A DNA stretch of 20,000 nt from an uncultured virus (IMG/VR IMGVR_UViG_3300022836_000006) (taxonomy: Duplodnaviria > Heunggongvirae > Uroviricota > Caudoviricetes), in the IMG/VR virus record IMGVR_UViG_3300022836_000006; one strand, written 5' to 3'. The stretch's first letter is position 1; every line of letters begins with the position of its first letter. Position numbers and translations under genes: made by a program. The notes under the pieces are model-generated. The model ran no database searches, was not told the origin of the DNA, and saw only the letters and a program-made list of their open reading frames with translations. Positions 5,373-19,035 of the stretch are shown piece after piece.

Positions 5373-6976
5373 CGGATACTTCTGGGGGCGCGGGCGCGGG
5401 GTCTGTTGATTGCACCATGGTTGGATCTGATGCCCGTCTTGGCCTGTGGGTTGAGCCCGGTCTTGGGCTTGGCTGGGATGGCTGATCGGTCGGTGAGGTA
5501 GCCACCTTTGATCGCTTGGTGAATGTAGCCAAAGGCTGTGCTGAAGTGGGATGCCCAGTCATGCACCGGCACGTTGCGCACACTCTGCCCGTCGCTCTCC
5601 TCCTTGGACCTGAACGCATCCAATGCATCGATACCGCCCTCGCACCCGTCGAGGTTGAAGGCACAGCGGGCGATGGATGCCAGACCTTGGTTGATGTTGT
5701 CCCACTCATTGATATTGCGGGCCATGCAGACGGTGTGGTCGAGGCCTGCCCTGATCAGCTGGCCTTGGTAGTCCACTGCAGCGTCATGTGGGAGGAAGTG
5801 ACCACCGTAGTTGAATGGCAGCGCCTTGATGCGTTTGGCCCATGCACCGGCGTGGTTGCAGTCGTCCCCACCCGTCAGGGACAGCAGCAGGTTGATGCGA
5901 TCACCCACCACTTGGAAGAACCACACCTTGGTGTTCCACGGTGCGCCGATGTCCCATGCCGTGTAGACCGGGAGTGCATCGTAGTGCAGCACCATGTTGT
6001 TGATCCGGCCATCACCCCGGGCCTTGTCCACATCTGATGCGTAGATGGCACCCGGGAATGGGGCACGCCAACACTCCTCAATGGTGCTGGGATACTCCGA
6101 GTAGATCATGCGCTTCAGGCTGACCTTCTTTTTGAAATACCAGAGGCGCTGGCCACCACTCAGCTCGATGCCCAGCTGCGTCTCAAGGTCATCCAGATAC
6201 TTGACCACCTTGGGCGGGATCTGGGAGACGTCGCCCTCCAGCGTGTATCGAGGCTCCAAATACCAGCCAAAGAACAGCACCTTGTAGTCGATCTTGGTCC
6301 GGTGCTCTGGTGAGACGGTCAATGCATCAGTGACCAGATCATACCATGCTCCCCCTTTACCACCCTTGTGCGTCGACTCGAAGATCACGATGGCGCTCTC
6401 CCCTGAGGCCGATGGCACAGCACCTGTCAGGATCTCTTCCGCCCGCTTTGGATCGTTGAAGGCGATGATGCCGAACTCTGAAACGTGGACATACTGATTG
6501 GTCGCACCCCGGGCATTCTTGCCGGCATACACTGCCGAGTCATTGGCCCAGCCTAGGGCGCTCTGGTTGTCCTCGGTCAGTGCGTCCCGTAGCTCTTGGG
6601 GCAGCCGATCATAGGCATACTTGACCATCTTGAGCTTGTTGGCGGCATCGTCGTGGGTCTTGTCCACGATGGAGCAGTTGGTGTCGTTGGTGAACAGTGA
6701 GGTGTCCAGCGCGATGATCGCCGCTAGGGTGGTGATGCCAAGCTGACGAGCCTTTGGGACGGCAAGGCGCTGCTCATGGTTGATGAACAGCTCATAGAGC
6801 ACCACGCACTGCGCCCAGTTGGGGACGAACTTGGTCTCCACTCCCTCGGCATTCTTGATCCAGTAGAGGTTACATATCCGAACCAATGGGTCGGTGAGTA
6901 GGTCGGCAACTTGCTCGTCGGTGGCATCGTCGGGTATCCGATAGTCGGCTACGTCGATAGCTTGGTGGGTGTTCAT
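5369..6976 (-). CDS. terL: terminase large subunit
   Basis: 535 aa; Walker A-type KARQLGITT, Walker B VHVSEFG, motif III FESTHKG, nuclease AWDIG, FLPHDA, PVHDWASH. Confidence 0.93.
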   Translation of the reverse strand: MNTHQAIDVADYRIPDDATDEQVADLLTDPLVRICNLYWIKNAEGVETKFVPNWAQCVVLYELFINHEQRLAVPKARQLGITTLAAIIALDTSLFTNDTNCSIVDKTHDDAANKLKMVKYAYDRLPQELRDALTEDNQSALGWANDSAVYAGKNARGATNQYVHVSEFGIIAFNDPKRAEEILTGAVPSASGESAIVIFESTHKGGKGGAWYDLVTDALTVSPEHRTKIDYKVLFFGWYLEPRYTLEGDVSQIPPKVVKYLDDLETQLGIELSGGQRLWYFKKKVSLKRMIYSEYPSTIEECWRAPFPGAIYASDVDKARGDGRINNMVLHYDALPVYTAWDIGAPWNTKVWFFQVVGDRINLLLSLTGGDDCNHAGAWAKRIKALPFNYGGHFLPHDAAVDYQGQLIRAGLDHTVCMARNINEWDNINQGLASIARCAFNLDGCEGGIDALDAFRSKEESDGQSVRNVPVHDWASHFSTAFGYIHQAIKGGYLTDRSAIPAKPKTGLNPQAKTGIRSNHGAINRPRARAPRSIR

Positions 6977-17767: not shown

Positions 17768-18021
17768 GCAAAGGTGTCGGTCGGATCTGCTCATTCTACC
17801 CTGACCCCAACATGGTCAAGCAGTGCGTGGTGCAACCCGGCGCTCAGCGCCTCACCGGGGTCGTCACCGAATGCGTCAAGGCTCCTCCTCCTAAAGGATG
17901 GAAGCGCCCAGACTTTACTCTAACTGTGCGTGGCAAATCCGGTCGCACCGTCACCATCAGCCTCATCGAAAACTACGCCCAGTTCCACGCAACGTGGCCT
18001 GCATCATCCCAATCCAAATGA
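17764..18021 (+). CDS. hypothetical protein (85 aa)
   Basis: Start ATG 17764 (ATGA overlap with upstream stop); its stop overlaps next start. Confidence 0.6.
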   Translation: MSKGVGRICSFYPDPNMVKQCVVQPGAQRLTGVVTECVKAPPPKGWKRPDFTLTVRGKSGRTVTISLIENYAQFHATWPASSQSK

Positions 18022-18470
18022 CTACTCCGATCCAAACATTAACCAACGCCGAAATCATCGCAGAGATGTGCCGATTGTTGCGCCTCCTATCCAAGCGGGC
18101 CGACGCCGCCATGCCGGTCCATTCTCCCGATCGCTCCGCGAACAAATTGATCCTTATACAACAGGCGATTTGCGACGTGTTACGCACTCCGATCGCGGTC
18201 ATGTCATCCCGAGCCCGACCTGACAACTACGTCCAAGCACGGCACATCGCGATGTTCCTGAGCCGCGAGCTGACCGAATACTCCATGCAAGATATAGCCA
18301 AATCGTTTCGCCCGACAATGAACCACTCCACGATCACTCATGGCCACAGAGCGTGCCTCGATCGCATGATGCACGTCAAAGGATTTGAGTCGCTTGTCGA
18401 TGCCTGCAAACAACGGGCGCTGAAGCTAATCGACAACGCCGGCCTCCCCCTCTTCCAGCAATCGTTGTGA
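18018..18470 (+). CDS. DnaA C-terminal (domain IV) HTH protein
   Basis: Start ATG 18018; S..R....VQARHIAMFLSRELTEYSMQDIAKSF....NHSTITHG matches the DnaA domain IV consensus. Confidence 0.8.
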   Translation: MTTPIQTLTNAEIIAEMCRLLRLLSKRADAAMPVHSPDRSANKLILIQQAICDVLRTPIAVMSSRARPDNYVQARHIAMFLSRELTEYSMQDIAKSFRPTMNHSTITHGHRACLDRMMHVKGFESLVDACKQRALKLIDNAGLPLFQQSL

Positions 18471-18841
18471 AAAACATTAAATCCCTATTCCCAAATGCCT
18501 CCCCTTCCTTCCTCAAACTCAACGGTCTTCCGGATGACGTGCCAACACCGAGTCCCAAGCCTAAACGCGCTGTTCGCTCTAAACCATTGGGGGCGACTAA
18601 AGTTAAAAAAAGAGATTCAAGCTTCTATGTTGTCCGGATTAAAAGCTTCCGAGTCCGATTGCTCGACACAGACAACCTCATTCCGAAGTGGCATGTTGAT
18701 GCCCTCCGCTACGCTGGAATCATACCTGATGACTCGCCGGAGCTTGCCGACATCACGACGACACAAGAAAAAGTCGCCACCAAAGCCGAAGAGCGCACCG
18801 AAATCGAAATCACGCGACACCTAGAACGCCCGGCACTGTGA
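18467..18841 (+). CDS. rusA: RusA-like Holliday-junction resolvase, catalytic part
   Basis: RLLDTDNLIPK..VDAL..AGIIPDDS...Q.K.....ERTEIEI carries the RusA DxDN..K..D.L...DD motif; GTGA overlap with upstream gene. Confidence 0.75.
   Translation: MKNIKSLFPNASPSFLKLNGLPDDVPTPSPKPKRAVRSKPLGATKVKKRDSSFYVVRIKSFRVRLLDTDNLIPKWHVDALRYAGIIPDDSPELADITTTQEKVATKAEERTEIEITRHLERPAL
18495..18824 (+). CDS. nested +1-frame ORF encoding a RusA-N-terminus-like segment
   Basis: VFRMTCQHRVPSLNALFALNHWGRLKLKKEIQASMLSGL resembles the RusA-family strand-PSxN-helix N-terminus missing from the other frame. Confidence 0.55.
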   Translation: MPPLPSSNSTVFRMTCQHRVPSLNALFALNHWGRLKLKKEIQASMLSGLKASESDCSTQTTSFRSGMLMPSATLESYLMTRRSLPTSRRHKKKSPPKPKSAPKSKSRDT

Positions 18842-19035
18842 TCACATGCATCCCAAACGTCAGGCGGCTCTATTGCTCCTTTTTCGGTCATGCAAAGCAG
18901 CACGTAATCGACACCTACCCATCCCCAACCCAAGTTCCCGCCTATCCCCGGGCCGAAACCGTGAAGGTCTTGTGCCCTCGATGTCGGCTCATCTACATCA
19001 CCAAAGTGTTCACCCTCCATCCCCCATCAAAATAA
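18838..19035 (+). CDS. small Cys/His protein (C.FFGH...CxRC, DUF1660-like)
   Basis: 65 aa, GTGA overlap; RRLYCSFFGH...CPRC. Confidence 0.55.
   Translation: MITCIPNVRRLYCSFFGHAKQHVIDTYPSPTQVPAYPRAETVKVLCPRCRLIYITKVFTLHPPSK

Follow-up and report, generated by a model that had tools for sequence, protein, structure and literature searches.

The Holliday junction resolvase RusA of Escherichia coli has its catalytic residues at D70, D72, K76 and D91. The protein (DLP12 prophage; PDB 1Q8R, 2H8C, 2H8E; Pfam PF05866) is one chain of 120 residues, written in one reading frame. Two overlapping frames of the same strand are known from other genes. The programmed -1 frameshift genes of bacteria and phages include dnaX, which gives tau and gamma, and the tail assembly chaperone pair G/GT. 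In overprinting, a new and unrelated protein is obtained. Long same-strand overlapping (overprinted) viral genes are the subject of a review (PMC8227390). Here we analysed a stretch of 20,000 nucleotides (the window) from an uncultured Caudoviricetes virus, IMG/VR record IMGVR_UViG_3300022836_000006, in which two overlapping open reading frames (ORFs), ORF A and ORF B, carry the two halves of a RusA-like protein. We are highly confident that both are real coding frames and carry these halves. We also think it probable, with some reserve, that the resolvase is encoded as two separately translated polypeptides which work as a non-covalent two-subunit enzyme.

In contrast to E. coli RusA, the catalytic chain of this locus lacks the N-terminal 50 residues, which are written in the +1 frame. 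The locus resembles dnaX and G/GT in having two overlapping same-strand frames and an A-rich heptamer in the window. It differs from them by a lack of conservation at the slippery site, by a downstream frame with a start and a conserved N-terminus of its own, and by an upstream frame that stays open well beyond the supposed shift. As in the overprinted viral genes of the review, two proteins come from one DNA stretch in different frames, and one frame is constrained at most positions. Unlike overprinting, however, the two frames here carry two halves of one known enzyme fold.

An earlier note on this DNA, made from the letters alone, had described frame A as a catalytic half behind a Pro/Lys-rich leader, with frame B nested in the +1 frame, and had pointed out an A7 run that reads A_AAA_AAA in frame B. 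It had also noticed that the helix of B (EIQASMLSGL) and the strand of A (YVVRIKSFR) share nucleotides. We found the locus to be as described in all of these points (Table 1). ORF A reads MKNIKSLFPNASPSFLKLNG, a Pro/Lys-rich stretch and then FYVVRIKSFRVRLLDTDNLIPKWHVDALRYAGIIPDD...ERTEIEI. ORF B includes ...RVPSLNALFALNHWGRLKLKKEIQASMLSGL... and ...VFRMTCQHRVPSLNALFALNHWGRLKLKKEIQASMLSGLKAS, which is followed by a Ser/Thr/Lys-rich tail.

Table 1. Position of the features of the two-frame RusA-like locus in the window
Feature	Position	Strand	Description
ORF A	18467-18841	+	124 residues, GTG start; N-terminal motif, passenger leader, RusA-like catalytic half
ORF B	18495-18824	+	109 residues, ATG start; +1 relative to A, nested within A
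N-terminal motif of A (I..LFPNASPSFLKLN)	18476-18523	+	frame-A conservation in some of the relatives
Leader of A, residues 20-50	18524-18616	+	B-coding nucleotides read in the other frame; poorly conserved protein, always open
RusA-like catalytic half of A	18617-18823	+	strand-helix-strand-strand; D67, D69, N70, K74, D78, D88, D89
RusA-like N-terminal module of B	18528-18647	+	strand, PSLN (18555-18566), helix with HW.R.K.KK and invariant Leu49 (18639-18641)
Dual-coded junction	18620-18646	+	same bases encode the end of the helix of B and the start of the catalytic strand of A
Tail of B, residues 52-109	18648-18821	+	out-of-frame reading of the catalytic half of A; Lys/Arg-rich, kept open
A7 run	18605-18611	+	A_AAA_AAA in frame B

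The identity of ORF A was examined with profiles and models. PHROG 34 (RusA-like Holliday junction resolvase) matched residues 64-118 of A (E 6.9e-7), and PHROG 1682 matched A as well (E 4.7e-4). In a word-indexed search for homologues of A, 38 of the 39 candidates had the same layout. Across 38 A-type proteins, D67, D69, N70, K74, D78, R81, Y82 and D89 are invariant, and the front part is poorly conserved. The AlphaFold2 (AF2) model of A, built on the homologue alignment, had a mean pLDDT of 81; the strand at 53-62, the helix at 74-82 and the strands at 94-102 and 110-118 reached 87-97, and residues 21-50 stayed at about 60. When this model was searched with Foldseek, E. coli RusA (1q8r_B) ranked first, with a probability of 0.98 and a root-mean-square deviation (rmsd) of 2.3 Å over 67 columns at 34% identity. 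RusA was also at rank 1 with VIA-align, where residues 50-119 of A were placed on residues 51-118 of the E. coli protein (Z 4.9, rmsd 2.7 Å, 65 residues).

The alignment of A with enterobacterial RusA by hhalign gave a register for the acidic residues. Residues 51-91 of A aligned on RusA 52-93 (E 0.0083, 38% identity), so that D67, D69, N70, K74 and D88/D89 of A correspond to RusA D70, D72, N73, K76 and D90/D91. Residues 1-49 of A contained no counterpart of RusA 1-50 in the VIA-align comparison; the strand-PxxN-helix module sits in frame B instead. Searching PDB sequences with the A and B profiles returned chance rows only. On the PHROG, AF2/Foldseek, VIA-align and hhalign results, A corresponds to the catalytic C-terminal half of a RusA-like protein, without a counterpart of RusA residues 1-50.

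The module of frame B was found in every related locus. It consists of a hydrophobic strand, P-S-[LW]-N and x6-HW-x-R-x-K-x-K-K-x-[IL]-Q-x-x-F-L-S-A-L; one locus (L012) reads PLWN in place of PS[LW]N, so that the strict motif did not pick it up. With its strand and the P-S-x-N behind it, the module is similar to the sequence ITLPWPPSNN of RusA. AF2 predicted an extended stretch at residues 11-20 of B and helices at 23-28 and 31-55, with pLDDT up to 96, and Leu49 is one of three invariant residues in the B alignment. A profile of the 40-residue module collected 316 representatives (at 50% identity) with E<=1e-3 among 1.84 billion proteins. An A-type catalytic segment in frame was absent in 147 of the best 150 of these representatives. 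One protein among the best 150, P0151, matches the pattern D.D[NG] only at its far C-terminal end.

The two halves were linked through proteins in which both are read in one frame. P0314, a metagenomic protein of 129 residues found via an unannotated ORF of MW202801.1, is a rare single-frame relative. It carries LPSLN..HW..RK.LK at the N-terminus and R.R.LDTDNL...DDSPKW...RTEIEI at the C-terminus, and PHROG 34 matches its residues 5-101 (E 5.6e-9). In hhalign, residues 3-31 of P0314 aligned with the B profile (probability 74%, E 2.9e-5), and its residues 45-125 with the A profile (probability 97%, E 1.8e-11). A BLASTP comparison of the window B protein with P0314 recovered PSLN..HW alone, at E 0.88. 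The B profile was also placed at the N-terminal PxxN..HW of the MW202801.1 ORF (E 0.019), Microbacterium phage Footloose gp53 (0.012) and Gordonia phage Budski gp95 (0.047); each of these matches is marginal and their placement is consistent, the PxxN..HW segment always lying upstream of the catalytic half. All four proteins match PHROG 34.

Since P0314 matches both the B and the A profile, the two ORFs are the two halves of one ancestral protein, each homologous to the matching half of the single-chain relatives. In these relatives both halves are in one frame, 48-58 residues apart, whereas in the family of the window they are out of frame and share nucleotides.

The MW202801.1 ORF itself (5749-6144; 403-798 in locus L087) is a RusA-like ORF of 131 residues from a GTG start or 121 from an ATG start. 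Most of it falls into the gap that separates two annotated hypothetical genes, and it shares nucleotides with the start of the second. It matches PHROG 34 at E 1.8e-5, and the Pfam RusA model matches below the cut-off (E 0.0032). Up to the next gene, the start of which overlaps the end of this ORF, no other plus-strand ORF of at least 30 residues begins inside it.

These alignments also bear on whether B belongs to the resolvase. A alone could be a working mini-resolvase, and B a separate small protein (a regulator, an inhibitor or a DNA-binding partner) which merely shares the DNA. All of the RusA catalytic residues named above fall in the half carried by A, the core of A was folded confidently by AF2 without B, and B alone had no significant family match; the basic tail of B, kept open, suggests a function of its own. 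However, in four single-chain RusA-like proteins the B module has its match in the N-terminal segment, which invariably precedes the catalytic half. The counterpart of RusA 1-50 that is absent in A was seen in each single-chain relative that we read. With about 40 residues, the conserved part of B also comes close in size to the missing piece. We consider a separate role for B unlikely.

We then compared the locus across viruses. A relative was encoded in 138 stretches of the viral contigs scanned, and we retained 80 loci. Frames were compared in 66 distinct gene copies (the window and 65 viral loci), and selection was analysed in 31 representatives at no more than 88% nucleotide identity, taken from 56 gapless distinct copies. 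The earlier note had proposed to look for both frames staying open and conserved in homologous loci, and this is what we observed. The +1 frame was open for at least 87 codons in 63 of the 66 copies; the exceptions were two copies at contig ends (L009 and L054) and one of 70 codons (L028). The +2 frame contained 1-17 stops per copy, and its longest open stretch was 18-81 codons. The distance from PSxN in frame B to KWHVD in frame A was 131 nucleotides in 58 of 62 loci, 128 in two and 137 in two, so the four deviating loci differ by multiples of 3.

Conservation followed frame B in the first part of the overlap and frame A in the second. Over 18527-18631 the identity was 0.26 in frame A, 0.44 in frame B and 0.29 in the unused frame, and the most variable codon position was the third of B. 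Over 18647-18805 the values were 0.51, 0.31 and 0.29, respectively, and the most variable position was the third of A. Through the leader of A, no stop was found in frame A in the 31 representatives, versus 103 stops in the +2 frame. In the B frame over 18644-18803, 12 stops were observed in these representatives, versus 26.5 expected from synonymous permutation within the gene or 52.3 from the codon usage of the locus, and 23 of the 31 had none. As a control, 941 windows of equal length were taken from long ORFs in these loci; their observed/expected ratio was 0.99, and only 20% were without a +1 stop. The stop of B lies within 45 nucleotides of the stop of A in 26 of the 31 representatives, and K and R make up on average 0.34 of the last 30 residues of B. 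The tail kept open suggests that B is translated to its end.

Both frames also have starts of their own. A frame-B ATG at least 6 codons upstream of PSxN was present in all 63 complete loci, and two further loci run off their contigs. Several loci, for example L034, L068 and L070, have a good Shine-Dalgarno sequence for B. In every complete locus, A has a start that precedes K74 by 49-149 codons. The L020 group has the two starts in the opposite order, and there the ATG of B comes before the start of A. An N-terminal motif, [FM]P[NQ]AS..F...N, is found at the start of A in 20 distinct loci of 81, represented by 15 sequences. Within it, positions 1 and 2 of the A codons are conserved and the third position varies freely, also at residues outside the search motif (I4, F15, L16, N19), and frame B has stops across it in 7 of the 15 representatives. 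Because the leader of A is open throughout and its N-terminal motif is constrained in frame A, we infer that A is translated from its own upstream start, and B would be translated from the internal ATG. With both frames open, each having a start and each under purifying selection somewhere in the overlap, the locus is, judged from the sequence comparison, a same-strand overlapping gene pair.

The frame of conservation switches at 18632-18641, where constraints of A and B interleave. At V56 and R57 of A (18632-18637) the constraint is that of frame A, with a free third base and alternation of CGN and AGR codons. The B residues opposite to them vary (S/C/F/Y/L and A/G/E/V/S). The following codon, 18638-18640, is NTT in all 56 copies and its first base varies among G, A and C, whereas only 32% (204/635) of the comparable codons further down the gene end in T. 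This invariant T fixes Leu49 of B. A constraint of B is thus preceded by constraints of A, so a chain made with one shift point cannot contain both. We also considered the conserved T at 18640 as part of a shift signal and dropped this idea, as no slippery context was found; a double shift from A to B and back to A, giving one chain, was dropped because B always has its own ATG.

The earlier note first offered a -1 shift at the A7 run as an explanation. One full-length RusA-like chain would then arise by programmed -1 ribosomal frameshifting, or by transcriptional slippage, from B to A, in the window at A_AAA_AAA. The order from B to A is that of the halves in single-chain RusA. The heptamer in frame B of the window is perfect, so a minor fused product is possible in this phage. 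A_AAA_AAG occurs at the same or a nearby place in eight other representatives. Three of the best 150 B-profile representatives, P0131, P0079 and P0054, begin as B and switch to the A reading, and P0131 and P0079 illustrate that in-frame B-to-A joins exist in databases. P0131 switches directly after the helix of B (..FLFALSA/RRRRLLDQNQDNL..), P0079 inside the DxDN region, which is thereby lost, and P0054 late, near the C-terminus and without the acidic motif. These three proteins may be assembly indels, decayed copies or real re-fusions.

Conservation of the site and the geometry of the fused chain do not fit such a shift. A heptamer of the form X_XXY_YYZ between PSxN and DxDN was present in only 9 of the 31 representatives and absent in 22; homopolymers of at least 6 occur there in 10 and are absent in 21, and they are located in Lys-Lys codons. 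No stimulatory structure was found downstream of A7 in the window sequence, where 18612-18680 folds at -12 kcal/mol (z -0.23 versus shuffles). The own start, the always-open leader and the conserved N-terminal motif of A are not needed by a frame that is reached only by frameshifting, and B remains open for about 55 codons past any shift point.

In the window, the Asn codon of PSLN (18564-18566) is separated from the first Asp codon of DTDN (18665-18667) by 98 nucleotides (32.7 codons), so fusion at A7 would leave 33 residues between PSxN and DxDN. The corresponding distance is 48 residues in Footloose gp53, 49 in Budski gp95, 52 in the MW202801.1 ORF, 55 in E. coli RusA and 58 in P0314, and the fused chain would be 15-25 residues too short. 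It would also lose the invariant Leu49 of B. As the end of the B helix and the catalytic strand of A are on the same bases, a fusion must lose one of them. The A7 run is best read as a lineage-specific by-product of Lys-Lys codons and not as a conserved shift site. A frameshift fusion is unlikely as the mechanism of the family, and a shift that provides the full-length resolvase, at A7 in the window, seems very improbable to us; this option of the earlier note is not supported.

Another explanation of the earlier note, an indel or sequencing error, would make the layout an artefact: a single RusA gene that carries an indel from sequencing or assembly, or a pseudogene broken not long ago. Such a split is on record in Bacillus phage SPP1, where the RusA-like gene 44/45 of the old entry X97918.2 is divided over two frames. 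In the window family, however, the two-frame layout with its fixed spacing was kept in all 65 related loci, which come from many samples, and selection was frame-specific on both sides of the junction. Logan contigs from 4 other salt-lake metagenome runs were identical over 18400-18900, the A7 run included, with no gap (at low depth, and possibly from one campaign). We regard an artefact as extremely improbable.

The SPP1 region (L083:11776-12485) superficially looks like the layout of the window. Gene 44 ends with ...YPSANAIY...EGKLLEWKNLAAS and a short basic tail, and the catalytic half (...VVLEMEFYLPDDGKVRDTHNAKKLLLDALEG...) follows in the next frame as gene 45. G44P of SPP1 was reportedly characterised as one protein of about 27 kDa, and the split in X97918.2 is probably a sequencing error.

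The remaining explanation, two polypeptides that complement each other, had been favoured by the earlier note. It agrees with the starts of both ORFs, the frame-specific selection and the interleaved constraints of the junction, and physical complementation of A and B is what we infer from them. Protein B, from the ATG at 18495, would consist of the N-terminal strand-PSxN-helix module and a basic out-of-frame tail. Protein A, from the GTG at 18467 and coupled to the upstream stop, would combine the catalytic strand-helix-strand-strand and its acidic residues with a short N-terminal motif and a passenger leader. The overlapping frames of both proteins take up about 375 nucleotides of DNA. The halves share part of it, so that they cannot both belong to one reading. 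The strand and helix of B would pack on the three-stranded sheet and helix of A and rebuild the RusA fold, which would then dimerise and cut junctions like single-chain RusA. Such a gene could have originated when an event that changed the frame between helix 1 and strand 2 divided a single-chain gene of P0314 type. After the split, each half would have been extended out of frame over the other, A gaining an upstream start and B keeping an open tail.

Several results weigh against two complementary subunits, in addition to the perfect heptamer of the window and the three proteins that switch from B to A. The loci share ancestry, and their counts are not independent events. Pfam gave no match for A or B at E<=10, and a six-frame search of the whole virus record with the Pfam RusA model was also negative. 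In structure, A matches RusA to a modest degree: the Foldseek E value against 1q8r_B is 0.17, and with VIA-align the next unrelated fold is at Z 4.2 versus 4.9. B alone had no significant match in Pfam, PHROGs, PDB sequences or PDB folds. When 35 B proteins were compared with PHROGs and Pfam, no common family appeared, and one of the 35 matched PHROG 1682 at E 0.033. The ESM Atlas gave no usable match to residues 8-56 of B; Foldseek and VIA-wide searches with the B model gave none, or generic long-helix matches with Z<=5.3; and tblastn of the B module against 50,697 phage records returned nothing relevant. The link of B to RusA leans mainly on one single-chain protein, P0314, at an hhalign probability of 74%, and hhalign of the B module against the narrow enterobacterial (E. 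coli-type) RusA profile gave no meaningful alignment.

A stricter form of the two-polypeptide model is conceivable, and we put it forward tentatively, as less likely than not. The resolvase could be an obligate two-subunit enzyme, one fold maintained as two overprinted genes, with its subunit ratio set by competing starts and with by-products of the overlap recruited. About 330 nucleotides would be read in two frames, including a short core in which the same bases encode a helix in one subunit and the catalytic strand in the other. The amounts of the subunits would be set on one mRNA by two competing start codons 28 nucleotides apart. The Lys/Arg-rich tail of B would serve as a DNA-binding arm, and the N-terminal motif of A as an assembly or targeting element.

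In the literature, as judged from search listings and the beginnings of abstracts, no description of a split or two-frame RusA was found, and on this footing the locus is a RusA-like resolvase with an unprecedented gene architecture. If the two-polypeptide model is true, it is a rare natural case of one small enzyme fold divided between overlapping frames and kept across a large phage family. It would bear on the origin of overlapping genes, here through the split of one gene and not the invention of a new one, on how much dual coding a protein core tolerates, and on the control of subunit ratios by phages. Gene callers keep one of the two ORFs and label it hypothetical, and resolvases of the two-frame family are therefore missed or mis-annotated in viral metagenomes.

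BK063671.1 (Caudoviricetes sp. vir555; host as named by the record, Methanomicrobiales) is the one GenBank phage record that holds a family member, and only the B-type ORF is annotated there (95 residues, hypothetical protein). This member (L082, 1309-1740 and 1439-1726) is divergent, with PLATWN in B and DSDG for DxDN in A. In a tblastn search with A, one metagenomic record matched.

A short annotation was also noticed in Vibrio phage D505 (OZ195742.1; L086:282-671). The annotated RusA-like resolvase there has 87 residues from an internal ATG, without the N-terminal half. A same-frame ORF of 129 residues from a TTG start includes this half, and PHROG 21721 matches it over residues 2-126. The same short annotation is probably present in other listed Vibrio phage records.

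The window is part of a 38-kb virus record from a salt-lake phage. The minus strand of the record carries the head, portal and terminase genes, and the plus strand carries a replication and recombination block with two exonucleases, a DnaC-like loader and, directly upstream of ORF A, a protein with a Bac_DnaA_C domain. The gene of this last protein (17898-18470, plus strand) encodes the helix-turn-helix domain at residues 87-151 (Pfam E 7e-15), without the ATPase part of DnaA. Its TGA overlaps the GTG start of ORF A in the string GTGA, and this stop/start overlap suggests translational coupling of ORF A to the upstream gene.

Downstream of the resolvase locus, a segment of about 45 residues (ELIEAYWA.C...WNR.AFD.F...L.....L..Y...G), without a Pfam match, was observed in some relatives. 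It is in frame with A, with no stop between, in L011 (3367-3498), L014 and L068, and in frame with B in L031 (3008-3478) and P0042, where it gives a B ORF of 155-157 residues. This segment may be a separate small downstream gene that was fused to different partners by lineage.

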